NCBI GenBank assembly: GCA_041494685.1
Contig: JBGQBE010000008.1
Coordinates: forward strand, 21,241 to 85,240
Source: Dehalococcoidia bacterium
GTDB taxonomy: Bacteria; Chloroflexota; Dehalococcoidia; DSTF01; JACRBR01
Length of the DNA: 64,000 nucleotides
Direction: 5' to 3'
The notes under the pieces are model-generated. The model did no database searches and was not told the DNA's origin. It saw only the letters and a program-made list of their open reading frames with translations. Each line of letters starts with the position of its first letter. Position 1 is the stretch's first letter. The translations under genes and the position numbers were made by a program. Below, in pieces: positions 9,551-43,445 of this stretch.

Positions 9551-9863
9551 CCGCCCGCCGCTGGTGCGGCCAGGCAGCCAGCACATGGGCGGACCGCTGG
9601 CCGGCGTGGACGGCAATCGAGACCAGTCGGTCGCGATCGTGTGCACACGACCTGGTCGCCGGAGTTCGAAGGCTTCGGCGGACACCATCGCAGAATAGCG
9701 TGTGGTCTTGACCTCCAATTGACCTTCGATCAGGCGGGAGTCGACGTTGACGGTGAGCCACCGGTCGCCGTCGCGTCGCGGTGCGCGAGCGTGGGGCCGA
9801 TCACGCGAGACATTGGGTGTGGGCGCCCATGTCAATTGGCCCGCCGCTGGGCGATACATCGAT

Positions 9864-20425: not shown

Positions 20426-20442
20426 TCACGGTGATCAGAATC
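20405..20442. repeat. 19-bp tandem duplication (ATTCACGGTGA[G/T]CAGAATC x2) at the 5' end of xis
   Basis: Units at 20405-20423 and 20424-20442 differ at one base. The junction creates the ATG now used by the xis ORF. The upstream ATG at 20453 (MSDEILITVN) now runs into a stop. Confidence 0.85.
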
Positions 20443-20928
20443 TCGTCAGACATCGGAGCGGAGCCCTTCAGGCGACTCGTCTCCGGATTCGATCCGGAAC
20501 AGGCGATCGAAGTCGTCGATGCGCAAGAACCGCGCTCGCGCCGGCGCGTGGACCTGACGCGGGCAGGATTGGCGGCGCTCCGCCAGCACCGGGCGAGACA
20601 GACTGAAGAGCGGCCGGGCCTGGGCGCCGCATGGCAGAAGAGCGACATGGTGTTCACGGACGAGGCCGGGAAGCCGATAGACGTCACGAAGTTCCTGCGG
20701 AACTCGTTCGCGCCGCTACTCAAACGCGCCGGCCTGCCGCCGATGCGGTTCCATGACCTTCGCCACACCGTCGCGACCCTCCTCCTCGGCCGCGGCATCC
20801 ACGCCAAGATCGTCTCGGAGATGCTGGGCCACAGCCAGATCGGCATCACGCTCGATCTCTACAGCCACGTCACGCCGACGATGCAGCGCGAGGCGACGGC
20901 CGCGATGGACGCGATCGTCGGCGGGTGA
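20431..20928 (+). pseudogene. 5'-truncated tyrosine recombinase (C-terminal catalytic part only)
   Basis: MRFHDLRHTVATLLLGRGIHAKIVSEMLGHSQIGITLDLYSHV contains the HxxR and Y catalytic boxes. The N-terminal arm/SAM domains and the first Arg box are missing. Confidence 0.8.
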
Positions 20929-21010: not shown

Positions 21011-21979
21011 TTATCCGTCCTCTGCGCCAAACTCGCGGTAAATGGTGGCGAGCACGTCTCCAAATGCAGCGGCTATGTTGCCGCGATCGAAGCGGATCTG
21101 CTGCAGCCCGGCTATGTTGCTGAACTCACCACAGCCTCGTTCTAGGAGCACGATCGCCTTCTCAAACCCAATCCGGCCTTGGAAGAGACCCGTTTCGTGG
21201 ATCACGTTGAGTCGAGCGTGCGAGTCTCCGGAAGCATCAATGTCTTCCGCCGTATGAACCAGCAGAGCGAAAGATGCTGTATTCGCCAGCTGCTCGAGGA
21301 TCTTGATCGCGGTGTAGCCGGCGCGGGCCCCCGTCTCATAAGCGGAAACCCGAAAGCCGTGCTGGTCCGTCAGATGGCTCTTGAGGTCCTGCCATTGGCG
21401 GTCACGGCCGTGTCCGATGAAGATGGTCAAGTCTCGCTTCAGATTGCTCTTGACGGTGTCGATCGGGAGCAAGCATCGGTCGACAGCGGAATCGAACACA
21501 GCGATGACGCCCTTCGTGTCCGCGTCGCTCCTCATTTTGACCGTGACCTCCGTGTTTTGGTGGGAGGCCGTGAACTCTAGCGTTTCGTAGTTGTGAGCAG
21601 CGCTGAGCGACATGGTGGCGAGGTCGCAGGGCGCATGCCCGTAGTCGACGAGGAACTCGGACAATGTCTCGGGCCACCACCGCTCATCTCCGACGCTGAT
21701 CATCGCGTCTTTGAGCGCGTAACCTTCGGGGTGGGCCCAGACGTTGAAGTCGTACGTCCTCTGCCTGTGAAGACTGTCCTCCTCGAGAGGGCGCTCGCCG
21801 ATCTCCAACATGGTACGCCACGTCTCCACGGCGTTACGGATGACGTCGGGAGTGAATCGGACGTTTCGATAGATGTGCTGCCGTCTCACCGTGATCCCAA
21901 CGAAGTTAATCGGAGCCCGGTCCCGCGGGCATGATAGCAGTAGGGCTGAGCGCTTCGAATTGTCCATGCGCGTCCACAA
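21011..21979 (-). CDS. Protein with an unknown N-domain and a C-terminal TIR-like (Cap12/pfam10137-type) domain
   Basis: The C-terminus TIFIGHGRDRQW...FALLVHTAEDID...ARLNVIHETGLFQGRIGFEKAIVLLERG...SNIAGLQQIRF follows the FIxHGxD...TxDD...ARxNVxxExGxFxG pattern of the bacterial TIR-like family. Confidence 0.65.
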   Translation of the reverse strand: MWTRMDNSKRSALLLSCPRDRAPINFVGITVRRQHIYRNVRFTPDVIRNAVETWRTMLEIGERPLEEDSLHRQRTYDFNVWAHPEGYALKDAMISVGDERWWPETLSEFLVDYGHAPCDLATMSLSAAHNYETLEFTASHQNTEVTVKMRSDADTKGVIAVFDSAVDRCLLPIDTVKSNLKRDLTIFIGHGRDRQWQDLKSHLTDQHGFRVSAYETGARAGYTAIKILEQLANTASFALLVHTAEDIDASGDSHARLNVIHETGLFQGRIGFEKAIVLLERGCGEFSNIAGLQQIRFDRGNIAAAFGDVLATIYREFGAEDG

Positions 21980-22071
21980 GAGTCCGTATTGGTTGCTGTC
22001 AGCGTTGCTGTCAAACCGAGTGCAAACGGCTCGATGGCGAGCAGAACTCAGCCCGATCTAGGTTCAGAATT

Positions 22072-22128
22072 GGTGCCGAAGGTGGGATTCGAACCCACAT
22101 GACCGTTGCCGGCCAACGGTTTTTGAGT
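22072..22128 (-). other. Partial tRNA-Leu copy, 3' half from the anticodon loop to CCA (attR-type island boundary)
   Basis: The 57 nt match 39444-39500 except at 3 positions. Two of the three differences are compensatory within the variable-arm stem. Confidence 0.85.
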
Positions 22129-22228
22129 TCAGCCAGCTTCGTCCCAACTGGTCCCAACAACTGCCGTCAGGACTCGATTCGTACTTGATTTCGGTGCCTA
22201 CGTTGCGTTGCGTGCCGTCATTTCGCGG

Positions 22229-22265
22229 TTGTTCACAACAAGAGCGTGAACAAAAGGTGAACAAA
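22229..22265 (+). promoter_or_regulatory. Candidate integrase arm-type sites (GTGAACAA x3: one inverted, two direct at 11-bp spacing)
   Basis: TTGTTCAC at 22229-22236, GTGAACAAAAG at 22246 and GTGAACAAACG at 22257. The same tandem motif occurs at 39369-39388 at the other island end. Confidence 0.5.
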
Positions 22266-22460
22266 CGCCCGCAGCGCTGTCCAGCGTGTTCGCCCCGCGA
22301 TACCCGTCTAAGATGGGGCTTCGAAATCCGACGGGAGGAGGTTCAAACCCCGCCGGTCATGCCACCGCCTCCGCTGAAAGCGGTATTCTGGCGTGCCACT
22401 GTTTCGCTCGATGTCGCGGCGCGAAATTCGCCGACAACCTTTGCCGTGAGGTGGAAGAGA

Positions 22461-23801
22461 ATGAGCTCCGTCGTTCTCACCCATTGGGATGGCGATGCAT
22501 TCCCCTTCACAGGAACGCCTGATCAAGTTGCTAGTCAAGTCCTCTCCGAACTCGTGTTCGCTTGCCTGCTGAACGAGCACGTCCTGATCAAGGACGTGGA
22601 CCTGGCGATGACGCCAGAGATCCAACACATCGTTACACACCCCCGCCATTCTCAGGTCCTGCGCGAACTCTGCGAGAGTGGCGCTCTCGTCCTAAATCGG
22701 ATGCCAGCAGACCACTACCAGGATGATGACCTGCGCCAGCAGAGCGCGATACATCCACTCCTTTCTCGCGCGATGAATCTTCAGCGGAACAGCACATTGC
22801 GGTCCGCGAAATGGATCATGCCGCCAGACCTCCGCAACGTGTGTGACATCGTCGATGGCTGGGTGGCCGGAGGCGTCCTTCGCGCTCGGTTCCAGGTCGG
22901 TGTCATCAGCATTGCTGAGACCTTCCCGCGCGAGTTCGCAGCAACGATGGGGGCGGCCGATACGCTAGAGAACCGCGATGACTATCCCGGACTCACGAAG
23001 GAAACTCTTCGAGCGTTTGAACAATTCGCACTCGATCCTGAGCGCGCGAACGATGTCCTGCGACGTAGAGGTCTGCTTGAACGTGAGCAACAGCAATTCA
23101 CTCGGTCGCTCCTCTATCAGTTGACTGAACTCGAGGAATATCGGCGTGAACAGGCGAGTTTACGCTCGCTGGGCCAGTCGATCTTTGCGAGTGTCTATTG
23201 CGCATCCGAGAACGCCGAGGGACGATGGGGCGAAAAACTGCCTGAGCGCCCACTGCTTGGGCCGCGGATTACCGGTCCGACGCACGAACGCATCATCTAC
23301 GAACCCGTCTTGACTTCACCCGTTGCGCTTGGCCCCGGCATAGGGCTGGCTGTCAAGACAGCCAGAGACACCGACGCCTTCGTCGAGTTGGTGAGAGCGC
23401 TAAACGGCCGTCAGGTGGGTAGTTCACTGCGCAAGACATTTGAAGGCGTAGTGCGAGTTTTCGTTGACGCGCTTCCGGCGGCCCCCGAGAAGAGCATTCT
23501 TGCTGGACCAGTTTGGGTGTTCGCCGAGGCCGCCAGCGTGGCAGCCGGGACGCTCGGTCTTGTTCTGCAACAAAGAGGAGCAGATCAACCAGCGGTGTTG
23601 GGGAGCGGGGCAGCGGCGCTATTCATACGGGCAGCGAAAGTGACCGACGAGCTGGTCTCGTGGCTGGCCGATCAACGTTGGCGAACTAGGCTGACGCATC
23701 GGTACTCCGACGTTCTTTCAGTCCGGTATGCTCGTATTCCACTCCTCACGATCCCTCCGGCTGACGCGCCGACTTTGAGAGAGCAAACCGATCCTAGCTA
23801 A
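22461..23801 (+). CDS. Hypothetical protein with C-terminal hydrophobic (TM-like) segments
   Basis: Probable start at ATG 22461 (MSSVVLTHWDG). C-terminal hydrophobic segments are ILAGPVWVFAEAASVAAGTLGLVL and AVLGSGAAALFI. No known domain recognised. Confidence 0.5.
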   Translation: MSSVVLTHWDGDAFPFTGTPDQVASQVLSELVFACLLNEHVLIKDVDLAMTPEIQHIVTHPRHSQVLRELCESGALVLNRMPADHYQDDDLRQQSAIHPLLSRAMNLQRNSTLRSAKWIMPPDLRNVCDIVDGWVAGGVLRARFQVGVISIAETFPREFAATMGAADTLENRDDYPGLTKETLRAFEQFALDPERANDVLRRRGLLEREQQQFTRSLLYQLTELEEYRREQASLRSLGQSIFASVYCASENAEGRWGEKLPERPLLGPRITGPTHERIIYEPVLTSPVALGPGIGLAVKTARDTDAFVELVRALNGRQVGSSLRKTFEGVVRVFVDALPAAPEKSILAGPVWVFAEAASVAAGTLGLVLQQRGADQPAVLGSGAAALFIRAAKVTDELVSWLADQRWRTRLTHRYSDVLSVRYARIPLLTIPPADAPTLREQTDPS

Positions 23802-25676: not shown

Positions 25677-26152
25677 CACCGGCGCAGTCGGTGCACCAGT
25701 TCGTGTTGAGGGACAGCTCTGTTGCGCGACGTACGTCGCGCTGACGGGCCCGAGCTTCGCGTTGGCGGTCGTCTCGACGGCCTACGCCGCCGCCAGCGGG
25801 CCTCAGGCTTCCGGCAACAGCCAACGAAGGATCCGCGTTGACGCTGGCCACCGACGAAGAGATCGACGACGACTGACAGCGCGCCCGGAATGCGGCGCGC
25901 GAAGGCAGGACGCTGGCGTGGAACGCGTGTGTATCTTGTGAGGGAAGGACGCCACGGGCGACGACGATGAACAGCCGTTCGACAACGGCTGGATCGATGC
26001 GCTGCGCATGTTCCTGGTCCAGTTCCCGCTTTCGACGAAGCCGCGAATCCTGCGAGTGTTGCGGATATGGCTCGCGTGCAACTATACTCGCCTCTGCCTC
26101 CTGCGCGAAGCGTTCGAAGAGGTCACCTGTGGCCTGTAACAACACCCTGAGC

Positions 26153-26365
26153 TTGTCGGAAGCCAACTGGCTGATCGCCTCGGCAAAGGCCCTTGGGCAT
26201 CCAGCGATGCGTGTCGGGGGGACCGTCCACGTCCTGTACCGCGGCTCGTTCGGCGAAGGGCGCTCGGCGGACATTACGGCCGAGGCACGCGAATGGAACG
26301 ACGCTGCCGAGCAACTCGAGCGGGAGGCGGCCGACGAGGAGGAGGGGTCAAGCGATGAGGACTGA
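26153..26365 (+). CDS. Possible small acidic protein (about 70 aa), or the 3' part of a frameshifted gene, directly upstream of the helicase operon
   Basis: High third-position GC in this frame from about 26141. TTG at 26153 or ATG at 26207 could be the start. An adjacent upstream segment (25942-26139) has a coding-like signal in a different frame. Confidence 0.3.
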   Translation: MSEANWLIASAKALGHPAMRVGGTVHVLYRGSFGEGRSADITAEAREWNDAAEQLEREAADEEEGSSDED

Positions 26366-26389: not shown

Positions 26390-27901
26390 ATGACAACCTC
26401 GAAGGATCGCGAAGGTGACTTCGGCGAGCTCGAACAGAGCTTGCAGTTGTCGCTGCCGCAGGATCTGCGGGATCTGTATTGCGGCGCGTTCCCGGCAAAC
26501 GTCTCCGACTTGGTGTATCGGCCAGCGGGCGATCCTGCCAAGCCTCCGCACGTCCTCTGGGCGCTCGACGCAATGCGCCATGGCGCCCAGGCTCCCGATG
26601 CCGATCTGGTTCCGGTTATGCCGGTGGATGATGCGTCGTTCGCGTGCCTCGTGTGTGCGCGAGAGGACGGCGGCGGTCCTGCCGATCTCGGAACGGTTGT
26701 ACGTTGGCATCTCGGCGCCGTGCCGGCGCGGGCACAGCGCCAGATCCTCGACGTCGGGTTGGCTCAGTACGTTGCGACTGCAGCAGCAGACCTGCGCGCG
26801 CGCGGCCCGGGACTGGAGGCGATGAAGCGCATCGCCGCAGCCTTTTCCGTGCACGATGACGATGGCACGAGGGCGAAGCTCTACGAGGTCCGACCGATTC
26901 GGCTCGCTGTTCAGAACGTCGTAATCGGACTCGCCGCCGTGCGCCAAGAATCGACTTATGACGCGCTCGCCGCTGATGCTTGGCAGACTTGCGAAGCGCC
27001 CCACGTGAATGCGCACGAAGGCGCACGGGGCCTTCTCGCGCTGACGCTGACCGAGGCGTTCCGCGCGGGCGGAACGATGGAGATTCGCTTCGACAGGCAC
27101 CCGGAACGGCGCGTGCCGGCGATGATACAGCAGTTCGCCCGTGTTCAGCGCGTGGACTTGGCCATGAGCGATCCTGTCAGCATTGCGCCAGCGGAAGCAC
27201 GGCAGCTGTTCTTCGCGGTTACGCGCGTGCCGGATGTCCTCCGAAGTCGAATAGACATCGCGACGAGGGCGCAGGCGATCACACCCGAACGTGCCTGCTT
27301 TCTGATTCTCGCCAAGATATGGTCGCCCATCGAGATGGACATGATCCTCGGCTTGAGTGAACGCGCGCCCTCGATACTCAAGGGCGGTGCGGATCCGCTC
27401 GAGCGGCTAGCCGCCCAGGCGGAGGGCGATGTCTGTCGCGCTGCCCGGATGATCGGAATGCTCTGGGCAAGGCTTTCGAACGCCGAGACTGAGACAGACT
27501 CAGCGACGAGGTTCATGGAGGATGCTCGAGTGTTGGTCGACTGGGTGATTGACGAGGAAGAAGGCGCGATTGTCTTCACGTCGTCGCGCCCTTGCAGCGT
27601 TCCCTGGGTCGTGTGCGGGCCGCCCGTAGTTGTCCCGGCTGGCGTGCCACTCGTTGTCGTTCCGAGGGCATTCGCGAACGAACAGTCTGCCGCAGTGGCA
27701 GAGCGCGTCGCGAAACGAATCGCTGGTCCGAGCGGAGCGCTCGCGCCGGTTGCCGCGACGCTTCAACCGCGAGACCAGACGTCGACGGCGGCCCGCGACG
27801 GTTCTTCGCCGGTCCTCGAGCTGGTCTGCCCCGATAACTTGGCCGAACTCGATCGCGAAGTGGAGGCCAAGCTTCAGAAGTGCCGGGTCGGACGAGCGTG
27901 A
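26390..27901 (+). CDS. Operon gene 1: SUKH/SMI1-KNR4-like N-domain protein (503 aa)
   Basis: N-terminus LEQSLQLSLPQDLRDLY...LVPVMPVDDASFACLVC...VVRWHLG follows the SMI1/KNR4 (SUKH-1) pattern. About 350 aa of unknown sequence follow. The stop overlaps the next start (TGATG). Confidence 0.6.
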   Translation: MTTSKDREGDFGELEQSLQLSLPQDLRDLYCGAFPANVSDLVYRPAGDPAKPPHVLWALDAMRHGAQAPDADLVPVMPVDDASFACLVCAREDGGGPADLGTVVRWHLGAVPARAQRQILDVGLAQYVATAAADLRARGPGLEAMKRIAAAFSVHDDDGTRAKLYEVRPIRLAVQNVVIGLAAVRQESTYDALAADAWQTCEAPHVNAHEGARGLLALTLTEAFRAGGTMEIRFDRHPERRVPAMIQQFARVQRVDLAMSDPVSIAPAEARQLFFAVTRVPDVLRSRIDIATRAQAITPERACFLILAKIWSPIEMDMILGLSERAPSILKGGADPLERLAAQAEGDVCRAARMIGMLWARLSNAETETDSATRFMEDARVLVDWVIDEEEGAIVFTSSRPCSVPWVVCGPPVVVPAGVPLVVVPRAFANEQSAAVAERVAKRIAGPSGALAPVAATLQPRDQTSTAARDGSSPVLELVCPDNLAELDREVEAKLQKCRVGRA

Positions 27902-28941
27902 TGCGAGAAACTGCCCGTTTCGTGTACCTATCCGCCGACGAATGGGCGAAGCTGGCGCTTCTGGCAGAACTCGCCGACGATGCCCGCCGACGTCAAGAGA
28001 AGGCCGCGTTCGGCGACAGGCGCGAAGCGATCCGGTTTGCAGGGTTGTGCACCGAAATAGAGAGGGCGGCGTGGCGATGCGTCCAGACTGGCGCTCCTAT
28101 GGTGATAACGGCTCCGGACAGCGAGCCGGCCGCCGGCATGCCTTGGATCACGTCGCCCCAAGACCTGCGCCAGCGCGGCGGGTCATCGACCGCGCCGCTC
28201 AAAAGACTACTTGAACGAGGTGGCGGTGCAGTCGTCGAGGTGCGTGACGCCTTCGGCCGCGGCCCTGCCCTCGCGCCTTTAGCCTCGCAACCTGAATGGG
28301 AGCCGCCGCCCCCCGCGGAAGTTTGGCGTGGTCCATCGGGCGCAAGGGGCCGTGCGGCTGACGAAGCGCGGTGGCTGGCGCAGCTGCACGCGGCGGCGAC
28401 GGACGGCAGCGCGCCCATCGTTCCGAGTGGGATCGGAAACAGGGTGATCACAGAAGGCCTGCGGCAGTTCGCGGCGAGATCTCGGGACTGCCAAGACCGA
28501 CCGGCACGGGTTGTATACCGAGACGGTTCCGAGGCCGATCCGTTTCCCCTGTCAGCCGTGAACCTCGTCGAGCATGAAGGCATGTCCGGCGTGCGACGGC
28601 TTCGCCTCGCCCTGATCTCGATGCGCCATCCGGAGATGGATGCAGATGTGGATGGGTGTTGGTTCAGGAATCGCGACGTTAGCCAGTCACGCCCTTCCGC
28701 GGACACCGACCGCTTCGCGACGAAGAGCTCGCGCGAACAACTCACATGTCTCGCGGCGGAAGGCCCGATGGTGATCGAGATGTACCAAACAGGTCTGGAA
28801 CCAGCAGTGGTGGGGTTCTATCGCGCGCTCGCCACGCACCTGAAGAGATCTCCCGGGTCAGTTGTCGTAGTGCCACGTTACTTCGACCGCGATCGCCCCG
28901 ACGACTATTCTCGAGGGACCACGTGGGCGTCACCGAAGTGA
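27901..28941 (+). CDS. Operon gene 2: unknown protein (346 aa)
   Basis: ATG 27901 overlaps the stop of gene 1. High GC3. No motif recognised. The stop TGA at 28939-28941 overlaps a GTG at 28938 in the helicase frame. Confidence 0.6.
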   Translation: MRETARFVYLSADEWAKLALLAELADDARRRQEKAAFGDRREAIRFAGLCTEIERAAWRCVQTGAPMVITAPDSEPAAGMPWITSPQDLRQRGGSSTAPLKRLLERGGGAVVEVRDAFGRGPALAPLASQPEWEPPPPAEVWRGPSGARGRAADEARWLAQLHAAATDGSAPIVPSGIGNRVITEGLRQFAARSRDCQDRPARVVYRDGSEADPFPLSAVNLVEHEGMSGVRRLRLALISMRHPEMDADVDGCWFRNRDVSQSRPSADTDRFATKSSREQLTCLAAEGPMVIEMYQTGLEPAVVGFYRALATHLKRSPGSVVVVPRYFDRDRPDDYSRGTTWASPK

Positions 28942-31900
28942 ACGAACCCCCCGCCACACCGCCTAAGACTACGCGGTGGAAGGCCGTCTGCAAAGACTGC
29001 CTGCGCGAACAGGGCGATGTTCGCGCAGCCGATGATCGTCGATACGACTCTCGCGACCTCTCGCCGGCACACGGTACCGCGCGACGCCGCGAAACCGCTG
29101 CGGACCCGCCTGACGACGGCGGACGCCAAGCCGGTGCGTTCGAGTACCCGGATCGCTGGCTGAGAAACGTCAGTGAACGTGGCGGCACGCGATCTGATCG
29201 CTGCCCCGCCCATCGGAACAAACACCGCCTGGATGCGCTGCAACTGGCGGCCCCCTACGTGGACATCGACACAATTGACGTCGTCGCGGACCCCGCGGAC
29301 CCCCGCGGGCCGCTCGGCGGCCTCGGTCCACTGCCGCTGGACCATGAGCGACGCGAGGTCACGTCCGGCCTCGATCCAAGCAAGTTCGCGATGCGGGACG
29401 ACGACGTGCTGAAGCTCCTGAAGGAACTCAGCACAAAGCAAGTGGCGCTGGTCGTCGCGGGCACCGGCAGCGGCAAGTCCCGGTTTCTTCCATATCGGTT
29501 GCTCGTGCCGCCAGACGGCGCCGCGATGCGCCTTGCTGATCGCGGCCCGATCATCGTGACGCAGCCGAGACGAACGGCTGCGACCGAGAACGCGGCGTGG
29601 ATCGCCAAGAACCTTCACAAGAGCGATGTCGGTCCGGGATCAGACATCGGATACAAGATAAAGGGCGGGAACAAGTTCGATGTCAACTGCGGCTTGGCGT
29701 TCGTCACCGACGGGAGCCTGATCAACTGGTTGCGGGATGGCACCTTCACGCGGTTCGGGGCGATCATCGTCGACGAGGCGCACGAGCGAAACACGAACAT
29801 CGACGTTATCCTGGGCTTTCTTCGCGCGAACCTCTGGCGATACCCGGAACTGCGTCTGATCATCGTCAGCGCCACTATTGACGCCGAATTCTTTCTCCAG
29901 TATTTCGGCGAGGGGGATCGCGTGTTCCTCCTTAGCTGCGAGGGGCAGAAGCAGTGGGGCTACGGCACGCCTCTGTGGCCGGGCGCCGGCATCGACGAGG
30001 CGTTCTTGAGCGCTTGGCAGGGCGACTCGCCCTCGGGAGAGCCGCTGCAGGATCTGACCGCCAGGTACGCGAAGCTCCGCGTCATGACCGGCGCCACACC
30101 TGTGGAGCGCTGGCGAGAAGAGATGTCGGGGGCTGTCGCGGCGCAGGTCATCCGGCTCCTCGAAGAAACGGAGCGGGGAGATATCCTCGGATTCCTGCCG
30201 AATCGCCGCCTGATCGACGATGCCTGCGCGTCGATCCGCCGGTGGGCGATCCAGCACGGCGGTGCGCATCAAGTCGACGTGCTGCCGTTGCTGAGCAGTT
30301 CGCCGGCTGACATTCAACGTAGGGCCTGCGCGGAAGCGAATCCTCATGGCCCGCGCCGCGTAATCATAGCGACCAATGTCGCCGAAACATCGCTCACCAT
30401 CAGCGGGATCAGGTTCGTGGTCGACTCGGGCCTCATCTCCCAGTCGGACTGGGATGTGGAGACCGTGCGAGGACGGGTTCCGACCGAACCTCATTCGCAG
30501 GACGGCCTTCGCCAGCGGTGGGGTCGCGTGGGACGCAATGAGCCGGGATGGGTGTTCCCGCTCTACACCGAAGAGCAGTTCAGCGACGAGCGGATCTGCG
30601 TTCCGCACACTCCTCCGGAAGCGACGCGGGCGAACCTCGAGCAGTTTCTGATGACCGCCACGGCGGCGGGCATTGCCCGACCGGAAACGTATCAGTGGCC
30701 GGCGACATTCCTCAGGGAGGGCGCGGACAGCGCCAGCGCCGAGCGGGCGGTCGCGTTCAGGAGCGAGGTCGCCCGCGCGCGAACCGCGCTGGTGCAGCGG
30801 GGAGCCGTCGACGACAAGGGGGATCTGACTGCGCTCGGGCTTGAACTGGAACGGTTCTCCTGTGCGCCGGAGATCGCCGCAGCGTTGATCCTAGCCGACC
30901 GCCTCGCCTGCGCGATCGAGGCAGCGACCGCGCTCGCGGTGCTGCCCGAACGAAACGTCATAGGATCGCTTCTGCTCTTCGACAAGAACTGGACAGCGGA
31001 ACGCCGCAGCCGGGCGCGCACGCTGCACATCTCGATGGCGCAAGGCTGCACCGACGAGCTTGAACTCCTGCTCAAGGTCTACGGATTGTGGGAGACAGCG
31101 GAGGACCCGGCGGCCTGGGCGCGAGAGCGGATGATCAGCGATACGTTGCTGCGGGACGCGAAGGCGCAGCGAGGTGAACTGCTCCGCCAGTTGACGCCGG
31201 CGGTGAACTGGACGCGGCCGCGGCCGGTGCGGCCGGACCTCGCCCCGCGCGTACGCGCGGTGTTGGCTCGAGCGATGCCCGACGCGGCATTTCAGCGCGA
31301 CGGTCGCGAGTGGACAAGCATCGCACGCTCGGAGCCGATCGCGGCCCAGCGAGGAGGCACCGCCTGCCTGCCGGATCCCGACGTCGCTCTGGCCTTCGCG
31401 CGATGGAAAGACGACAGCGGTATCCGGATTGCCAATCTCGTCAGGGCGCCCCTCTGGGCGCTGCATGCGACGTACGAACCAATAACCTTCATCCAGCGGG
31501 TCAGCACAGAGTCGGATCATGAAGCGCACTCTTCCCTGTCGGAACATCGGGCTCTCCACGACTGGCGTATCGGCGAATGCTACAACGTCACGATAGCGGC
31601 CGACGCCGCCGGACAGCTTGTTGCCGTCGGCGGGTTGGTGCGTTCGGGCGGCGGCCTCGACAACGACCGCCGGAAGGGCGCACGGGCTGGGGCGCACATC
31701 GCGAGCGGGGTGGCTCTCGACATTGTAGAGGCCGATGCGGTTCGCGATGACCCGGCCGGTGCGGCTCACGCGCTTGCCGACGCCGGCAATGATTTCTTGG
31801 TCGAGCCCGACGTCGACGGCGCGACCGGCGTCAGCGAAGGCGAAGAAGAGTACCTTCAAGGACCGAGGATCGATGCGGAAGACGGCCCTGAACAAGTCGC

Positions 31901-33929
31901 TGTTGGAGACGGGCCCACTCGAAGCAGCGCCGTTGAGGCGCCGCACGCAGCGAAAGTGGTCGCGTTCGGCGGGGGAGATCTGCGCGGCGGCAGCGGGCCG
32001 ATCGTCGTGCTCGGATACGAAGGTATCGGCGAATCCGCGCGCCTCGTCGTCGCTCAGGTCGCCTCGCTCGGCGTACTGCCCGACGAGCGGCGGCGCGAGG
32101 TACGCGTCTTGGAATCGGTCCACGGTTGGGGCCCGCCGTTCTTACGCGTCCTCGATGAACGAGTTGGTGAAGAGTTCGCGGTGGACGGATCCGAACTCTC
32201 GCTCGACGCGAAGAGTGACGACGCTGTTGACCGTATCGAGCCAGGGAGCCGATTCGAAATTGAGCTGCTGGGAGGCGGCCGCGCCATACCCTGCCAGATC
32301 CTCGACCAAAGCGTCTCGCGGCTGCAGTCAGTGTTGGCTGGACAGAAGGGGCCGACCTTCGAGGCATCGGGCCGCATCGTCGACAGCTCTGGATGGATGA
32401 AGGTCGCGCTCGGCGGCGACGGGACCGCGGATAGCGTCGTGTTTAGCTGCCCTGGGAAGTTCGCGAAGGGATTGCTGCAATCAGTCGGGGCGCCCGTCAC
32501 CGTGAGGCTCCGGCTGCCAGACGGCGCTGCCGAGGTATCGGTGAAGCTGGATGAAGATGTGCCGTCGCACTCACCGCGTCAGTGGCAGGCAGCGGCTCGA
32601 TGGAACCCGCAGGACCGGACGCTCTGCGCAGCGCCCCTTATGCCCGCGTCCGCACGCGATGAGATGCTGGCACTCGATCCACGTGTTCGATGGCGAAGCG
32701 CCGTGTGGGATCTCTGGTGCGCGAGCAACGTGCTCGAGGTCGTTTCACTGGCGACCCCCTCGCCGGAGCAATTGTCCGCATTCCTGCCGCGCGAGATCGC
32801 ACGCCTCAACGAGGTATATGCGGGACGGCGGATCGACGGTGTCGTGAATAGCGTCGAGGAGGGGCGGATCTTCGTCACGGGGCCGGAGAACACGAGGATC
32901 TTGGTTCCACGGGAAAGAATTGGTCCCGATGGGGCGCTTTGGCCGGCGCAATACCTCAAGGTGGAGCAACCGGTCGTGGTGTTCGTGAACACCGTTCGCG
33001 ACGATGGCGGGAAGATAGCATTTGACGCGCGTATTGAAATAGCCCTGCCGTCGCGTTCGCAGCAGGCCAAACTGCTCATGCCGGTACGGCAGACGGTCAT
33101 AGGAACAGTGCTCAAGGTGTTGGAGCGCGGCGATGTGCGCGTGTCGCTGCCGTATTCGCTCCAAGGGCAAGTCAAGCGAGGGCTTCTGCGACCGGGCCAG
33201 TCGCTGAGTGAAGGTAGCCCGGTCGAACTGGTCGTTCAAGACGTCCGGCCGGGGACCTTTTGGCCGCAGATCGATTTGATACCTGCGCCGGTACCGGTGG
33301 CCGCTCGTGTTCCCGCGGCGCAGCCGGCGGCCCCAACGCGGCGCCGGGAGGCAGCGCCGACGCCCGAGCGCGTCGCTGCGACACGAAGGCCGGCAGCGAC
33401 ATCTGTGCGAGAAAGGATGGCCCCGTTAGTCCTCCTCTTCGCTCTGGCGCTCGGGGTGGCGTCGAGCCTCTTCATAGCGTTCCATTTTGTTCGAAGCTGG
33501 CAGGTTCAGGCATGGGAATGGGCAGGGCGGCATTCGTACGATGGCATCGTCCGCGCGATTGATACGAGTTCGTTCGGTCCGTTCGACTGGGCAGAATGGG
33601 CAATTGGCGGCGTCGCGGCAACGCTGTTCCTACTGCTAGTCTCTGCGGCCCTTCTGCGTCGACATTCACGGCCGCGCCGCACGTTGGGCGCGGCACTTAT
33701 GGGCTCCGGCGCGCTGTTGGGCGGAGCCTCAGTCTGTCTCTGGTTGTTCTTCCAGATCGACGACTGGCAAGGCCAGGTAATTCGCTGGGCCTGGCGGCAC
33801 GAGTACTGGGGCATCGCGGTGAGCGTGCGAACCGGAGCATACGCGGACATCAGCTGGGCGCATTGGGCAATCGGCGGAGCCGCCGTCGCGGCAACACTCA
33901 GCGTCGCCGCCCGCGCAGTGCGGCGCTGA
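28938..33929 (+). CDS. Operon gene 3: giant DEAH/RHA (HrpA-like) helicase with an N-terminal Cys/His motif, C-terminal S1-like OB domains and four TM helices
   Basis: Walker A VAGTGSGKS (about 29460). DEAH box IIVDEAHERN (29772-29783). Motif VIIATNVAETSLTI. QRWGRVGR. HA2-like APEIAAALILA...ELELLLKVYGLW. S1-like RIDGVVNSVEEGRIFV and VIGTVLKVLERGDVRV. TM tail from 33417. The start is GTG 28938 or 28923. Confidence 0.8.
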   Translation: MNEPPATPPKTTRWKAVCKDCLREQGDVRAADDRRYDSRDLSPAHGTARRRETAADPPDDGGRQAGAFEYPDRWLRNVSERGGTRSDRCPAHRNKHRLDALQLAAPYVDIDTIDVVADPADPRGPLGGLGPLPLDHERREVTSGLDPSKFAMRDDDVLKLLKELSTKQVALVVAGTGSGKSRFLPYRLLVPPDGAAMRLADRGPIIVTQPRRTAATENAAWIAKNLHKSDVGPGSDIGYKIKGGNKFDVNCGLAFVTDGSLINWLRDGTFTRFGAIIVDEAHERNTNIDVILGFLRANLWRYPELRLIIVSATIDAEFFLQYFGEGDRVFLLSCEGQKQWGYGTPLWPGAGIDEAFLSAWQGDSPSGEPLQDLTARYAKLRVMTGATPVERWREEMSGAVAAQVIRLLEETERGDILGFLPNRRLIDDACASIRRWAIQHGGAHQVDVLPLLSSSPADIQRRACAEANPHGPRRVIIATNVAETSLTISGIRFVVDSGLISQSDWDVETVRGRVPTEPHSQDGLRQRWGRVGRNEPGWVFPLYTEEQFSDERICVPHTPPEATRANLEQFLMTATAAGIARPETYQWPATFLREGADSASAERAVAFRSEVARARTALVQRGAVDDKGDLTALGLELERFSCAPEIAAALILADRLACAIEAATALAVLPERNVIGSLLLFDKNWTAERRSRARTLHISMAQGCTDELELLLKVYGLWETAEDPAAWARERMISDTLLRDAKAQRGELLRQLTPAVNWTRPRPVRPDLAPRVRAVLARAMPDAAFQRDGREWTSIARSEPIAAQRGGTACLPDPDVALAFARWKDDSGIRIANLVRAPLWALHATYEPITFIQRVSTESDHEAHSSLSEHRALHDWRIGECYNVTIAADAAGQLVAVGGLVRSGGGLDNDRRKGARAGAHIASGVALDIVEADAVRDDPAGAAHALADAGNDFLVEPDVDGATGVSEGEEEYLQGPRIDAEDGPEQVAVGDGPTRSSAVEAPHAAKVVAFGGGDLRGGSGPIVVLGYEGIGESARLVVAQVASLGVLPDERRREVRVLESVHGWGPPFLRVLDERVGEEFAVDGSELSLDAKSDDAVDRIEPGSRFEIELLGGGRAIPCQILDQSVSRLQSVLAGQKGPTFEASGRIVDSSGWMKVALGGDGTADSVVFSCPGKFAKGLLQSVGAPVTVRLRLPDGAAEVSVKLDEDVPSHSPRQWQAAARWNPQDRTLCAAPLMPASARDEMLALDPRVRWRSAVWDLWCASNVLEVVSLATPSPEQLSAFLPREIARLNEVYAGRRIDGVVNSVEEGRIFVTGPENTRILVPRERIGPDGALWPAQYLKVEQPVVVFVNTVRDDGGKIAFDARIEIALPSRSQQAKLLMPVRQTVIGTVLKVLERGDVRVSLPYSLQGQVKRGLLRPGQSLSEGSPVELVVQDVRPGTFWPQIDLIPAPVPVAARVPAAQPAAPTRRREAAPTPERVAATRRPAATSVRERMAPLVLLFALALGVASSLFIAFHFVRSWQVQAWEWAGRHSYDGIVRAIDTSSFGPFDWAEWAIGGVAATLFLLLVSAALLRRHSRPRRTLGAALMGSGALLGGASVCLWLFFQIDDWQGQVIRWAWRHEYWGIAVSVRTGAYADISWAHWAIGGAAVAATLSVAARAVRR

Positions 33930-35985: not shown

Positions 35986-37150
35986 GTGGAAGAATTCGGG
36001 GGGCAGCTCAGTCAGACAGCGAGCCAAGGGTTCCTGGACCGTCGTCATCAACCTCGGTCCGGATCCTGTCACGGGCAAACGGCGTCAGCTGACGCGTACC
36101 GTTCGCGGCTCGCGCCGTGAGGCTGACGCGCATTGCGTCCAGCTGCTGCACGAGCGCGACTCAGGACTGCACCAGTCTCCCAATCGCATCACCGTCGCCG
36201 AGTACCTTCGCCATTGGCTGGCGGCATACGCCGAGCCGAACACCGCGCCGCGCACGTACGCCAGGTATGAAGAGATCGTCCGCGTGCACCTCATTCCCGC
36301 GCTGGGACGCTATGCCCTCTCGCGCTTGCACCCGACGCGGATACAGACGTACTACGCCGCGGCGCTCAAGTCCGGTCGAGCGGATGGGCGCGGGGGATTG
36401 AGCGCGCAGACGGTTGTTCACCATCACCGTGTTCTTCGAGCGGCTCTCGAGCAGGCCGTGAAGTGGCAGATTCTGGTGCGCAATCCCGCGGACGCCGTGA
36501 CGCCACCGCGACCAGTTCGACGAGAGATGCGCTTCCTCAACCCGAAGGACATCGCGATCCTCCTCGACGCATGTGAGGACGATGACCTCCGGACGCTGAT
36601 CTTTGTGGCGCTGTCGAGCGGGCTGCGTGAGGGAGAACTCCTGGCGCTGCGCTGGTCCGACCTCGACCTGAAGGCCGGCCGTCTGCAGGTGACACGCACG
36701 TTGCATTACCTCGGGAAGGGCGGGTTGCAGTTCGGCGAACCGAAGACGAGACGGAGCCGGCGCCGTGTCTCAATGTCGAAGGAGACTGCTCGTGTCCTGA
36801 CGTTGCATCGCACGCGCCAGCTCGAGCGCCGTCTGCTGCTTGGAAGCGCGTACGTCGACACCGACCTTGTGTTCGCGACCGAGACCGGTGAGCCGATTCG
36901 GCCGTACACCATCGCGCCGCGATTCGTACGGGTCGTGCGAGCCGCCGGGCTCGCGCACATGCGCTTCCACGACCTCAGGCACACGAGCGCATCGCTGCTG
37001 CTCGCGGCAGGCATCCACCCGAAGGTCGTCTCCGAACGCCTCGGCCATTCGACCGTGAACCTGACGCTGGACACGTACAGCCACGTGCTGCCGGGGCTGC
37101 AAGAGCAAGCTGCGCAGTCTATGGATGCCTACCTACCGAAGGCGAAGTGA
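35982..37150 (+). pseudogene. int: Tyrosine integrase of the island. The N-terminal 100 codons have no usable start, pointing to a frameshift in a G6 tract right after the ATG
   Basis: The frame of 36284-37150 (LRHTSASLLLAAGIHPKVVSERLGHSTVNLTLDTYSHV) stays open upstream to 35981 and encodes VRQRAKGSWTVVINLGPDPVTGKRRQ (arm-binding domain). It has no ATG, GTG or TTG. ATG 35982 would be in frame if the G6 tract at 35998-36003 were G7. Confidence 0.7.
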
Positions 37151-37214
37151 AGCCCACGGCGAACAACTCTGGCGCACCTGACCCGGAGCCGCGATCACGT
37201 CCGACTGGTATGCT

Positions 37215-37287
<73 letters not shown>

Positions 37288-37338
37288 TGGCGCCCGATGC
37301 CAAGATAGACCGTCTGCCGATACGCTCGTGCTGCGAGG

Positions 37339-39324
37339 ATGCCAGTGCCAGAGTCTCTGCCCTTACGTGCGACCGCCAAGCTCTACACGGAGCGGCTCGG
37401 GCGTGACCTTTACGCGCCCGCACAAGCCTTGGCCCAGCTCGTCGCGAACTCACTCGATGCCGACGCGCACCGAGTTCGCATAACTCTGGACGAAACAGAA
37501 CTCCAAACCGTTGAGCGGATCACGGTGGAAGACGACGGACAAGGTATTTCGCCGGAGCGGTTCGAGCGGCACTTCCTTGATGTCGGTGTGCATTACGAGG
37601 AGCAGACTGACGCAGCTCGCTCCTCCCGGGTGATGGGATCGAAAGGCATTGGGCGCCTCGCCTCGTTTAGGTTGGGCTACAGCTCCGTTTGGAGAAGTGT
37701 GTCGGAGGCGAACGGCAAGCGCGTACGTCTCACCTGGGCGATGACAACCGACAACCCATCGCCGCACGAGTTCGAACGGACCGATGACCCGCCACAAAGA
37801 AACGGCACGAGGATCGAGATCTATGTGCATCCGGCGGACCCGCAGCTTCATCGGTTCCTTAATGAACAGCTCATCCTCCGCGAACTGTTCAACACATTTG
37901 CCTCCCGCCTTCTTCAGGATGACAAGCAGCGAGAGATCACGGTCAACGGCCACGTCTTGGACCTAAAGAGTTTTGTCGACGAAGAGTCGATCGAGAATCT
38001 TCCTGCAGACGCCGAGGCCGACCGCCCGGCGGCGACCCTACATCATCTGGTCGTCACGAATCAGGTGAAGATGGACCACTCAGCGGTGATCTTCGTCGCG
38101 GGTGATAGGTGGACATACGAGACGCTCCCACTTCAAGGTCCGAGCCTCCCCAGTCGGCGCTACGTCGGTATTCTCGAGTCAGACTACGTGACAGCTCACT
38201 CGAGGACTGCAAAGAACGAGCTCGTGGAGGACCGGCGAATAGAGGCTTTGAAGTCTTTCGCGTCTGGCCGAGCGACCGATTTCATCCAGCATCGGCGCGC
38301 GGAGCGCCAACAAAGCTTCATTGAGCAAGCACGGAAAGAGCCCAGCTACCCGTTCAAAGCGCCGCCTCGCACGGCCGTAGAGAGAGTCGAACAGGGCATC
38401 TACGACCAAGTGCTGACGTTGATGAATGAGGTCGCGGATGTTGCGGGTGCACAACCCGCTATGCGCCAAATGCTGATGAGGCTCGCGAAGGCTGTCCTAC
38501 ATGCAGACGAAGATCTCGCCACAGTCATTGGAGAGGTGCTCGGACTAAATGAGCCTCAAGTTCAGGAGTTCGCCGACCTTCTGCGTCGCACTGATCTCCC
38601 ATCAATTATTCGAGTCGCGGGACTCGTAGTAGACCGCCTCGAGTTCTTGAAGGTTCTAGACGACGTGCTCTATGGCCGACCCGAACTTAAGGTCAGCGAG
38701 CGTCGACACCTTCAGAAGATGCTCGAACGGAACCCTTGGGTGTTCGGCGACGGCTGGCAGCTCACGACGGCTGATAAGAGCGTCGCAACGATAGTCGAAG
38801 CAGTGACCAAACGTTTAGGCCTTCAACCGGACGAAGATCCAGACGCGAGAACGGACGTCTCATCAGCCCTGCGCCTGATTCCGGACTTCTATCTCGTACA
38901 GAATCGCCAAGAGCGGGGGGTCGTCGATCACCTGGCGGTCGAGATAAAGGCGCCAGGCGTTCGCATTACTGATGCGCACATCCAAAAGTTAGAGAGGTAC
39001 GCCGAGGCGCTCGTAGAGCAGCCGGTATTCGGCCAAGGGCACCATCGATTCACGTTTGTTTTGACTTCCTCTGACGTCGTGGAACGGGTGGAGAGAATGC
39101 GGCTGGAGCAGACAAACCAACCTTATGGCTACATTTCAAGCCCTGGCCTCCGGCATCCTACGACCCTCTGGGCGTTTAGGTGGTCGAAGATCCTGGATGA
39201 CAGGCGCGCCGACCTCGAATACCTACAGCGTCAAATCGAACTCCGTGAAGACCCCGAAGCCACGCTTTACTTGCGTTCGAAGTTCCCGGAGCTGTTCGGA
39301 ACCACCCCGAACCCCGCGTCCTGA
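37339..39324 (+). CDS. GHKL (HATPase_c/MORC-like) ATPase fused to a Shedu/DUF4263-like PD-(D/E)xK nuclease domain
   Basis: N-terminus: LAQLVANSLDADA (N box), VEDDGQGIS (G1), GSKGIGRLA (G2). C-terminus: NPWVFGDGWQL...IPDFYLV...DHLAVEIKAPG...KLERYAEAL resembles the DUF4263 nuclease core. Confidence 0.65.
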   Translation: MPVPESLPLRATAKLYTERLGRDLYAPAQALAQLVANSLDADAHRVRITLDETELQTVERITVEDDGQGISPERFERHFLDVGVHYEEQTDAARSSRVMGSKGIGRLASFRLGYSSVWRSVSEANGKRVRLTWAMTTDNPSPHEFERTDDPPQRNGTRIEIYVHPADPQLHRFLNEQLILRELFNTFASRLLQDDKQREITVNGHVLDLKSFVDEESIENLPADAEADRPAATLHHLVVTNQVKMDHSAVIFVAGDRWTYETLPLQGPSLPSRRYVGILESDYVTAHSRTAKNELVEDRRIEALKSFASGRATDFIQHRRAERQQSFIEQARKEPSYPFKAPPRTAVERVEQGIYDQVLTLMNEVADVAGAQPAMRQMLMRLAKAVLHADEDLATVIGEVLGLNEPQVQEFADLLRRTDLPSIIRVAGLVVDRLEFLKVLDDVLYGRPELKVSERRHLQKMLERNPWVFGDGWQLTTADKSVATIVEAVTKRLGLQPDEDPDARTDVSSALRLIPDFYLVQNRQERGVVDHLAVEIKAPGVRITDAHIQKLERYAEALVEQPVFGQGHHRFTFVLTSSDVVERVERMRLEQTNQPYGYISSPGLRHPTTLWAFRWSKILDDRRADLEYLQRQIELREDPEATLYLRSKFPELFGTTPNPAS

Positions 39325-39388: not shown

Positions 39389-39443
39389 TGCTAAGGCGTG
39401 CAACAATTGATGTCGCGGCTGCGAGCCACGTTAGATTCAGAAC

Positions 39444-39531
39444 TGGTGCCGAAGGTGGGATTCGAACCCACACGAGCGTTGCCGCCCAACGGTTTTTGAG
39501 ACCGTCGCGTCTGCCATTCCGCCACTTCGGC
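39444..39531 (-). tRNA. tRNA-Leu(CAA), class II with a long variable arm and encoded CCA
   Basis: The reverse strand reads GCCGAAGTGGCGGAATGGCAGACGCGACGGTCTCAAAAACCGTTGGGCGGCAACGCTCGTGTGGGTTCGAATCCCACCTTCGGCACCA. The acceptor stem pairs. Anticodon stem-loop ACGGT-CTCAAAA-ACCGT. T-loop GGTTCGAATCC. Confidence 0.9.
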
Positions 39532-39576
39532 CCGCTGGCACGCAGTGTAGCCGCTCGCGCGGCGCGCGGCGACACG
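39496..39576 (-). repeat. Direct repeat copy 1: tRNA-Leu 5' half plus about 45 nt of upstream promoter region
   Basis: 81 nt match 43365-43445 with 1 mismatch. Includes a TACACT -10-like box 12 nt upstream of tRNA position 1. Confidence 0.9.
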
Positions 39577-41031: not shown

Positions 41032-41176
41032 GACACAGACGACGCCGAAGGGCTACGAGATTCCGATCCCAAAGCGGACGGACTTCGACCGCCTCATCAA
41101 GAAGGCGGCCACGACGCCCGTTCCAGACTCAAAGAAGCCCCTACGGGGCCGGAGTCCGCGCCGCCCGAAGAAGTAG
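41009..41176 (+). CDS. IS passenger: small Lys-rich protein (55 aa), divergent from the HEPN-like gene
   Basis: Below the ORF-track size cutoff. MKDKQSDKTQTTPKGYEIPIPKRTDFDRLIKKAATTPVPDSKKPLRGRSPRRPKK has very high third-position GC. GAGG lies 12 nt upstream. Overlaps the transposase 3' end by 36 nt, convergently. Confidence 0.4.
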   Translation: MKDKQSDKTQTTPKGYEIPIPKRTDFDRLIKKAATTPVPDSKKPLRGRSPRRPKK

Positions 41177-42523: not shown

Positions 42524-42585
42524 CTGGAAGCCGACCTCAACGACATCATGCCATAGGCGGCTTCGGCAGTCAAGGGATACTTACC

Positions 42586-43217
42586 AACTCGATTACTTGA
42601 AGGTTCACGATATCCTCGGGCTCCGGCTCGTAACGGGACGCTGCCATTAGCCAAGGTTCGTTCTGGCTGGCGGGGATCGGCACGAGCCAACTTGTAGACC
42701 CATGCACCTTGATAACCTGTGCCGACGGATCCTGGGTGTATTGCGTCAAGTTCTTAAAGTGGAATCGGGAGGAGTCGTACGTCCTTAGCGCAACCTCAAG
42801 CATTGTGTCGTAGTTCAGCACTACAAACATGATCTCATGAGAGAGCGGGTCTAAGAGACGCGACACCAACCGAATGTAATTTGCTGGCGCTGGCACATAG
42901 GCTGTTGCGCAGAACACGAGCACGTCTCGAAGATAGCCCGGCACGTGCCGATAGTTCGCCAGCATCTGCGGGTTGGTGCTCTCCGCGTACCTTGTTAGCT
43001 GCTGCTCAAGATCAAAGGGATCGGGCTGCGTCGCCAATGCGCCCAGCTCCGATCCAACGACTGCGGCACCTGGGTACCTCTGTCGCTGCTGCCAGAACCG
43101 GGACTCGAAGAGTTCGCGGGCGAGCGGCGGTTGCGCCCGATCGTTTGTGATAGGTACCGAAGCGTTGTGCACGTCATACGATGCCCCGGCACCCAAGATC
43201 ACGACGGCGCGTTTCAT
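42586..43217 (-). pseudogene. SIR2-like (SIR2_2) gene, N-terminal fragment
   Basis: MKRAVVILGAGASYD...FVVLNYDTMLE...VIKVHGS follows the GAGxS / NYD / HGS motif order of SIR2_2. The reading frame runs into the IS right end. Confidence 0.7.
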
Positions 43218-43364: not shown

Positions 43365-43445
43365 TTGAGACCGTCGCGTCTGCCATTCCGCCACTTCGGC
43401 CCGCTGGCACGCAGTGTAGCCGCTCCCGCGGCGCGCGGCGACACG
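43365..43445 (-). repeat. Direct repeat copy 2: tRNA-Leu promoter plus 5' half, ending in the anticodon loop, with no 3' half
   Basis: Matches 39496-39576. It diverges immediately after CTCAA of the anticodon loop. Confidence 0.9.

Follow-up and report, generated by a model that had tools for sequence, protein, structure and literature searches.

What might a giant DEAH-type helicase do in a compact, self-contained bacterial cassette of about 8 kb, encoded beside a SUKH-domain protein and a protein of no named family? The question is raised by a 64,000-nucleotide (nt) stretch of the Dehalococcoidia bacterium contig JBGQBE010000008.1, called the window throughout, in which an earlier note, made from the sequence alone, described a translationally coupled three-gene unit. 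We found that the trio is genuine but that the unit has four genes, an upstream gene whose product starts with a short conserved tag (gene 0) having been overlooked, and that the second protein of the trio has a SAVED/CARF-like fold. We regard the cassette as a horizontally mobile four-gene conflict system, most probably of an anti-phage or anti-mobile-element, abortive-infection type, a reading to which we give somewhat better than even credence.

The overlapping open reading frames (ORFs) of the trio were confirmed by reading the window sequence, in which TGATG (27899-27903) forms the junction of genes 1 and 2 and GTGA (28938-28941) that of genes 2 and 3. In public gene calls on contigs with identical proteins, gene 3 begins 15 nt earlier, at the alternative GTG start given in Table 1, and the overlap with gene 2 is kept. 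A scan for promoters and terminators gave no signal above chance. A search of 185,579 species, each represented by a single genome, with the two best motifs of gene 2 returned 57 loci in about eight phyla, the carriers belonging, by record title, to Actinomycetota, Alpha- and Gammaproteobacteria (Pseudomonadota), Chloroflexota, Planctomycetota, Patescibacteria, Thermodesulfobacteriota and Bacteroidota, with one unclassified metagenome bin. Gene 1 lay immediately upstream of gene 2 in 52 of the 57 loci and the helicase gene immediately downstream in all 57, with constant order and strand; gene 1 was not detected in the remaining five, two of which have too little upstream sequence. Run across genomes, the synteny check gave the order 1-2-3 in essentially every related locus with enough flanking sequence. 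Of 62 related loci, 53 offer a start that gives a 4-nt overlap with the gene 1 stop and four more offer one that gives a 1-nt overlap, a permissive count that uses the start nearest the gene 1 stop, and the same junctions appear in the gene calls of nine independently annotated contigs. The order kept across phyla and the overlap-type starts common at the gene 1/2 junction bear out the claim of a coupled module.

High-GC DNA yields many long spurious ORFs, and the adjacency and overlap of these genes might be ascribed to chance, or the ORFs themselves taken as spurious. We put the probability of this explanation at practically nil, as it is refuted by the homologue counts and the conserved order. 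Homologues of gene 2 form 88 clusters, all unnamed and without Pfam domains, and an exhaustive profile search gave 419 representatives of the gene 1 family, where a word-index homologue search had returned 12-13 clusters even with a profile query. The proteins also yield confident structure models, and order and junctions are kept across GC contents as well as phyla.

The cassette is rare, patchy and mobile. Its plasmid carriers are a conjugative plasmid of Paenarthrobacter (NZ_CP094491) and a large Streptomyces plasmid, and one copy resides on a replicon that encodes a RepC initiator together with RelB/ParE, Fic and BrxR. One cassette is flanked by two copies of the insertion sequence IS3, and another adjoins a type IV secretion coupling protein. 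Neighbours elsewhere include a RES toxin with a restriction enzyme, a NACHT STAND protein with an ISL3 element, and an Upf1-like helicase, and the cassette at L067, the closest relative of the window locus, adjoins bacteriophage exclusion (BREX) genes (BrxB and a PglX-like methylase). The cassette was absent from the 50,697 phage genomes searched. The 149 nearest flanking ORFs (about 50 loci) matched 127 Pfam families, each of them seen in at most four ORFs, and this census revealed no further conserved partner gene. Culturable genera with the cassette are Streptomyces, Rhodococcus, Nocardia, Roseovarius and Paenarthrobacter.

The product of gene 2 had been described as lacking any recognisable motif, which did not hold, as its confident model (predicted local distance difference test, pLDDT, 90.9) matches SAVED/CARF folds. 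In a Foldseek comparison with the PDB, nearly all of the top 45 matches were SAVED or CARF proteins, with Cap5 first (expect value, E, 1.6e-4; probability 1.0) and 3TM-SAVED, SAVED-CHAT, Cap4, TIR-SAVED and Csm6 as further fold neighbours. Because the structural alignment scores (TM-scores) are low and a sequence match is absent, we call the modelled protein SAVED-like and not a member of the SAVED family. Its invariant polar motifs (YRDGS, SxRHxEMD, WxRN, SxxR, TD and QTGLE) are confined to the C-terminal lobe, a cluster that would suit a specific ligand pocket or active site. Gene 2 encodes a stand-alone protein of 346 residues, and the sole fusions seen join this protein to the gene 1 core, not to an effector domain.

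Such a protein might instead be an orphan receptor, a true SAVED receptor binding a cyclic oligonucleotide or another nucleotide made by an unlinked CBASS (a system in which cyclic oligonucleotides signal against phages), a type III CRISPR (clustered regularly interspaced short palindromic repeats) system or a host enzyme, with the helicase itself as the effector and the upstream gene optional; the ligand would then switch on the helicase, which might, for example, strip or sequester RNA. This account agrees with the SAVED/CARF-like fold and its strongly conserved polar pocket, and also with the lack of a linked cyclase in the contexts examined: none was found in the cassette, in 11 annotated contexts or among the 25 commonest Pfam families of the 149 flanking ORFs. 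A 2025 preprint reports a TIR-SAVED effector that works through a conserved host signal (doi 10.1101/2025.06.19.660554). We nevertheless consider the orphan receptor rather unlikely, since a tagged effector gene is found in most loci and in distant phyla, and would thus be a core part of the cassette. Known SAVED receptors are, moreover, fused to their effector, whereas the gene 2 protein is a separate one, joined at most to the gene 1 core, and has no Pfam SAVED sequence match.

In gene 1, the proposed SUKH-type N-terminal domain was corroborated by the family profile and by Pfam matches in relatives. The profile built from 96 relatives matched the solved SUKH structures of YobK (2prv, E 2.6e-6) and Lin2918 (2icg, E 8.7e-5) over positions 6-138, and Pfam matches among 90 relatives comprised SMI1_KNR4 (39), SUKH_5 (37) and SUKH_6 (34); Knr4 and Lin2918 were also listed weakly by Foldseek for the gene 1 model. 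The window protein alone had no Pfam match, and PADLOC and NCBIfam scans of it were also empty. Some relatives carry a second SUKH domain in front, and many others consist of the core only (about 380-420 residues), a pattern in which the SUKH domain is accessory and the core is the universal part of the family. At L067, the gene 1 homologue (8197-9982) is split into two ORFs, of which one encodes the SUKH domains and the second the core.

The AlphaFold model of the gene 1 protein is confident (pLDDT 85.9; predicted TM-score 0.84), and the whole protein had no Foldseek match at E < 0.1 among PDB and viral structures. The core falls in no Pfam, NCBIfam or PADLOC family and lacks a significant structural neighbour. 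Weak local GNAT-like Foldseek matches recurred over about 66 residues, including one to the N-terminal acetyltransferase RimI, and a profile comparison with an approximate RimI sequence gave a probability of 0.35%, hence no sequence support for GNAT likeness. Natural fusions of the gene 1 core with gene 2 (P0232, P0242 and P0243) are strong evidence that the two proteins would act as one unit; genes 1 and 2 are mutually unrelated by hhalign.

The fourth gene of the unit was revealed by a shared protein start. Directly 5' of gene 1 and on the same strand, an ORF with Ala-Cys or Gly-Cys after the start codon occurs in 40 of the 57 loci, compared with 3/46 downstream and 13/57 antisense controls; among the 40, some three resemble chance matches. 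The tag varies by lineage, reading MACGNNHVSRxYLSSQP in Actinomycetota, MAC(A/G)KPPDP in Alphaproteobacteria and MGC... in Chloroflexota, and MACNN or VACNN in the two loci nearest to the window (L066 and L067); outside the 40, the five Patescibacteria-type loci have MSQCCGKIP in four cases and MGQCC in the fifth. Behind the tag, these proteins of 110-380 residues have C-termini that are only nuclease-like or hydrophobic. These comprise a nuclease of the Endonuclea_NS_2 family (E 1.4e-9), several forms that show both D...E-x-K (PD-(D/E)xK-like) motifs and weak UPF0102, NOV_C or Mrr_cat matches, an 'HVHVIH' form without known fold, a family of about 365 residues, and short proteins with a terminal hydrophobic helix. 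Conflict-system effectors usually combine a conserved tag for docking with toxic domains that can be swapped, and the tagged upstream gene, toxic-looking from its sequence, is a predicted modular, toxin-like effector.

In the window, gene 0 starts with GTG, has AGAGG 7 nt 5' of this codon, and encodes a protein that begins VACNNTLSLSE. It retains the tag region and an acidic tail, the nuclease domain is gone, and no remnant of an effector C-terminal nuclease-like domain is left in the window. Public assemblies also call this 78-residue gene, 24 nt before gene 1. Its N-terminus matched the MACNN/VACNN effectors of L066 and L067 (pairwise E 7e-5; 39% identity over 46 residues), and its match to a hidden Markov model of the Actinomycetota effectors was not significant. 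At L065 (NZ_CP094491.1, Paenarthrobacter plasmid pB), an intact ORF for 153 residues beginning MACGNNHVSR... (9969-10430) lies directly 5' of the gene 1 homologue and is absent from the features of the record, whose names for the other three genes are 'hypothetical protein' or 'S1 RNA-binding domain-containing protein'; genes for tagged effectors are, as a rule, probably under-annotated. At L059 (Rhodococcus sp. KRD162), a cytidine/MafB19-like deaminase gene (7311-7910) lies just 5' of the tagged gene and may be additional toxin-type cargo.

SUKH is a classic immunity domain against nuclease toxins, and Endonuclea_NS_2, present among the effector domains, is a typical polymorphic-toxin domain. 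The tagged nuclease and SUKH could accordingly be seen as a toxin and its immunity protein, with the helicase as accessory, in an addiction or competition module that stabilises plasmids and islands or excludes rival elements; the finding of the cassette on a conjugative plasmid, a RepC replicon and tRNA islands fits such a role. This seems to us a fairly unlikely account, as many family members, for example in the Patescibacteria loci, have no SUKH domain yet keep the effector, and as an ATP-driven helicase of 1500-2100 residues and a SAVED-like sensor far exceed the needs of a toxin-antitoxin pair. Defence and addiction roles are mutually compatible.

Gene 3 encodes a DEAH/RHA helicase, whose best PDB matches were DHX8, Prp22, Prp16, Prp43 and HrpA (E 1e-47 to 1e-53), extending to about residue 750. 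Motifs I, II, III and VI (GSGKS, DEAHER, SAT and QRxGRxGR) are intact and invariant among homologues, and no Pfam HA2, OB_NTP_bind or DUF3418 match was found in the protein. The C-terminal half of gene 3, compared with PDB sequences, gave no match. At the N-terminus, the cysteine ligands C18, C21 and C89 are invariant in 29 homologues, five of which match Pfam zf_Tbcl. The tails of the same 29 homologues contain S1 domains in 20 (best E 3.5e-54) and KH domains in eight, and Jag_N also occurs. Because the tails carry S1, KH or Jag_N domains, the architecture points to RNA as the probable substrate. Homologues are mostly 1470-2150 residues long, with about ten of 860-1200 residues, mainly from Patescibacteria, Ktedonobacteria and Pseudomonadales metagenome bins.

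The earlier note had called this helicase membrane-anchored; the DEAH core, the zinc motif and the S1-like domains all stood, and the membrane anchor proved true of the window copy only. The last 180 residues contain three hydrophobic segments above threshold and a fourth identified by eye, with hydropathy peaks at residues 1493, 1551 and 1583, and the duplication within this tail is visible both in the protein and in the DNA, as repeat D16 with a spacing of 273 nt. The repeat unit consists of a W-x-W-x-x-R-H-x-Y motif, then W-A-I-G-G and then a hydrophobic helix. None of the complete homologues checked (L001-L057, L066 and L067) has a C-terminal hydrophobic cluster, and a plasmid search for homologues of the tail was empty.

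That the helicase core is nearest to HrpA, HrpB and the spliceosomal DEAH helicases, and that proteins of RNA metabolism typically carry S1 and KH domains, might suggest a housekeeping RNA-processing operon of the HrpA/HrpB kind. We judge this very unlikely and in effect excluded by sub-cut-off scores, rarity and patchiness. Against the NCBIfam equivalogs, the window protein scored 216.6 bits for TIGR01967 (HrpA; cut-off 722.75) and 193.2 bits for TIGR01970 (HrpB; cut-off 546.15), in both cases over the helicase core only and far below the cut-offs. The cassette occurs in only 57 of 185,579 species, scattered over phyla and found on islands and plasmids; its partners are toxin-like and sensor-like, and conserved placement among ribosome or RNA-decay genes was not seen in the 149 flanking ORFs.

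Taking these observations together, we propose that the DEAH helicase would serve as an ATP-driven sensor or motor on RNA, such as invader transcripts or replication intermediates, and that the gene 1 core and the SAVED-like gene 2 protein would form a regulatory adaptor sub-complex on the helicase. The adaptor would hold the effector by its conserved N-terminal tag and would free or activate it upon a signal from the helicase, or upon binding of a nucleotide or RNA-end ligand in the SAVED-like pocket, while SUKH, where present, might act as an extra toxin clamp or in decoy or sensing of phage proteins. In the window allele, the unique four-helix membrane tail on the helicase may substitute for the lost nuclease effector; this allele may equally be a decaying copy. 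More speculatively, and in our estimate quite unlikely, the Met-(Ala/Gly)-Cys start could be a covalent modification or loading site for charging interchangeable toxins onto a helicase machine under the control of a SAVED-like sensor, for example through N-terminal or thiol acylation by that part of the gene 1 core which is weakly GNAT-like.

A defence function of the cassette is plausible, and on the sequence evidence we consider it likely. Several points weigh against the conflict system as proposed. The TM-scores of gene 2 against SAVED/CARF structures are about 0.3, with the lobes placed differently, a likeness at the level of the fold only, and gene 2 has no sequence-level match in Pfam (including the SAVED family), PADLOC, NCBIfam or the PDB; nor is a cyclase or other signal-making enzyme linked to this SAVED-like gene. 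The adaptor role given to the gene 1 core is a guess, because the core has no recognisable fold relative, and RNA is assigned as the helicase substrate from the family and domains alone. In 17 of the 57 loci, a Met-(Ala/Gly)-Cys gene in the sense used here is missing, and five of them have the MSQCC or MGQCC variant instead. Enrichment of defence genes was not demonstrable in the 149 flanking ORFs, which are mostly miscellaneous genes, so that of the defence-island context claimed for the cassette the window neighbours were confirmed and a general enrichment across loci was not. Finally, because its effector is truncated, the window copy may be inactive.

The supposition that this gene set had not been described was upheld within PADLOC v2, Pfam, NCBIfam and the full-text literature searched. 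With PADLOC v2 (PADLOC-DB v2.0.0, including PDC candidates), genes 1 and 2 had no match at E < 0.1 and gene 3 matched Cas3 only (E 0.011); none of 37 gene 2 relatives matched, and 90 gene 1 relatives gave four scattered matches (PDC-M40A twice, PDC-M20B once and CSD_V once). A literature search that included a 2020 survey of NTP-dependent conflict systems gave no description of the gene set, with incomplete coverage of papers. The cassette, in which two proteins of no known family occur with an effector tag not noticed before, is thus apparently undescribed.

In its workings, the cassette would come closest to the helicase-plus-nuclease type represented by Hachiman and Mokosh and to SAVED/CARF-gated effectors. 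Hachiman comprises the HamA nuclease (DUF1837) and the superfamily 2 helicase HamB, which is thought to sense the state of nucleic acids and license the nuclease, in a compact mobile cassette. The present cassette likewise sets a large superfamily 2 helicase beside a PD-(D/E)xK-type nuclease effector in a compact, mobile form. However, genes 1-3, the 37 gene 2 relatives and the 90 gene 1 relatives gave no PADLOC Hachiman match, its helicase is of the DEAH/RHA type with S1 or KH arrays and a zinc ribbon, and it adds the gene 1 core, the SAVED-like gene 2 and a swappable effector with a Met-(Ala/Gly)-Cys tag. Mokosh, a candidate RNA-directed defence, pairs the large Upf1-like (superfamily 1) helicase MkoA with a PLD nuclease, and shares with our cassette the combination of a large RNA helicase and a nuclease. 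By contrast, the cassette helicase is DEAH/RHA and not Upf1-like, neither a PADLOC Mokosh match nor a PLD domain was found, and its SAVED-like and SUKH partners are absent from Mokosh.

The modelled fold of gene 2 is nearest to those of the SAVED/CARF effectors of CBASS and type III CRISPR (Cap4, Cap5, TIR-SAVED, SAVED-CHAT and Csm6), with which the logic of a sensor controlling a toxic effector would be common. The cassette differs from these in that neither a CD-NTase (SMODS) nor Cas10 was found in it or in the flanks examined, and in that gene 2, without a Pfam SAVED match, occurs alone or fused to the gene 1 core and not to an effector. Polymorphic toxin-SUKH pairs such as YobL-YobK resemble the cassette in setting a SUKH domain, here one with a YobK profile match, beside nuclease-type toxin domains. 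Yet the cassette toxins have a short N-terminal tag in place of domains for trafficking or secretion such as RHS, LXG or filamentous haemagglutinin, and their SUKH domain is fused to a large core, is dispensable in many members and is tied to a SAVED-like protein and a giant helicase. With HrpA/HrpB and the eukaryotic DEAH/RHA helicases (DHX8/Prp22, Prp43/DHX15 and DHX36), several of whose DExH/DEAH kin act in innate RNA sensing, gene 3 shares the core motifs and the winged-helix/ratchet region, and 3'-to-5' RNA translocase activity would be expected by analogy. It differs from HrpA/HrpB in its added N-terminal zinc ribbon, long variable S1/KH tails, mobile context and scores below the family cut-offs.

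The window copy lies in a 17.4-kb integrated island (Table 1), bounded by a 69-nt repeat that duplicates the 3' half of tRNA-Leu(CAA). The island contains, besides the cassette, a PIN toxin with a Phd-type antitoxin, a MarR regulator, a HEPN_Swt1 protein, an IS3 element, a tyrosine integrase and a GHKL ATPase. The tRNA-Leu repeats together with the PIN/Phd, HEPN and GHKL genes confirm the tRNA-integrated island with toxin- and defence-type neighbours described before. The GC content of the cassette region is 0.59-0.65, compared with 0.70-0.74 in the window beyond 44 kb, and the upstream 20 kb is mixed (0.61-0.70). The HEPN and MarR neighbours were considered as parts of the system and rejected, as they are not conserved alongside the trio.

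TIR-like and SIR2-like genes had also been placed in the adjoining elements, and both were found, the SIR2-like match being weak. The TIR protein (21011-21979, minus strand), of the CAP12/Pycsar effector type, is encoded just outside the left repeat and matches the PADLOC candidate PDC-S35 (E 5e-13); an integrase fragment (20431-20928) adjoins its gene. An 81-nt direct repeat (39496-39576 and 43365-43445, 99% identical) spans the tRNA-Leu 5' half and its upstream flank, and the pair encloses a second inserted element of about 3.9 kb, containing an IS1595 transposase gene (41141-42523), the weak SIR2-like ORF (42570-43217) and two ORFs without family match. Insertions thus flank the tRNA on both sides.

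Further features of the window concern the genes around the cassette. A perfect (CGGAGC)n hexanucleotide tandem array (37203-37298) lies between the integrase gene (36284-37150) and the GHKL gene (37339-39324, plus strand), and might form a tract liable to slippage within the promoter region of the latter. The first 115 residues of the GHKL (HATPase_c_3) protein match PADLOC type II restriction-enzyme models (E 7e-12), and no partner gene was identified for it. An ORF for 538 residues (22185-23801, plus strand) starts 58 nt inward of the left attachment repeat and is a cargo gene without Pfam or PADLOC match. A ParB_N-DNA methyltransferase fusion (17564-18808, minus strand) aligns along its whole length with a type II methyltransferase model (E 2e-119).

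Table 1. Coordinates of the cassette, its domains and the island boundaries in the window (aa, amino acids)
Feature	Coordinates (nt)	Strand	Remarks
Gene 0	26129..26365	+	78 aa; truncated member of the Met-(Ala/Gly)-Cys-tagged upstream genes
Gene 1	26390..27901	+	503 aa; N-terminal SUKH and conserved core
SUKH domain of gene 1	26405-26803	+	about aa 6-138; family-profile match
Gene 1 core	26852-27898	+	about aa 155-503; conserved; no family assignment
Gene 2	27901..28941	+	346 aa; stand-alone two-lobed SAVED/CARF-like protein
Gene 3	28938..33929	+	1663 aa; giant DEAH/RHA helicase; alternative start GTG 28923
Zinc ribbon or treble clef of gene 3	28980..29222	+	N-terminal CxxC ... CxxH; homologues CxxC ... 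CxxC
DEAH helicase core of gene 3	29385..31187	+	two RecA domains, winged helix, part of ratchet domain
S1-like OB-fold repeats of gene 3	32820..33257	+	Pfam S1 aa 1295-1362, E 0.0017; second repeat by eye
C-terminal membrane tail of gene 3	33390..33926	+	aa 1485-1663; two copies of a two-helix hairpin unit
Left attachment-site copy	22059..22127		69-nt direct repeat, 93% identical to 39432-39500
tRNA-Leu(CAA) and right attachment-site copy	39432..39531	-	tRNA 39444-39531 (tRNA call); attachment-site copy 39432-39500 (repeat)

We rate the cassette among the helicase-centred modular conflict systems. DEAH/RHA helicases are known in bacteria mainly as the housekeeping HrpA/HrpB, and those of eukaryotes are known for their part in splicing and the innate sensing of RNA; if the cassette works as proposed, it would be an immune system centred on a DEAH/RHA RNA helicase. 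The proposal, if true, would also introduce two new protein families, the gene 1 core and a stand-alone SAVED-like sensor without a linked cyclase, and a new three-residue N-terminal tag common to unrelated nuclease and membrane effectors, which would hint at a general means by which swappable toxins are docked or modified. Should the acylation or loading of the tag prove true as well, it would represent a new effector-tagging principle in bacterial immunity and a prokaryotic counterpart of the eukaryotic DExH/DEAH RNA sensors and Met-Gly-Cys acylation motifs.

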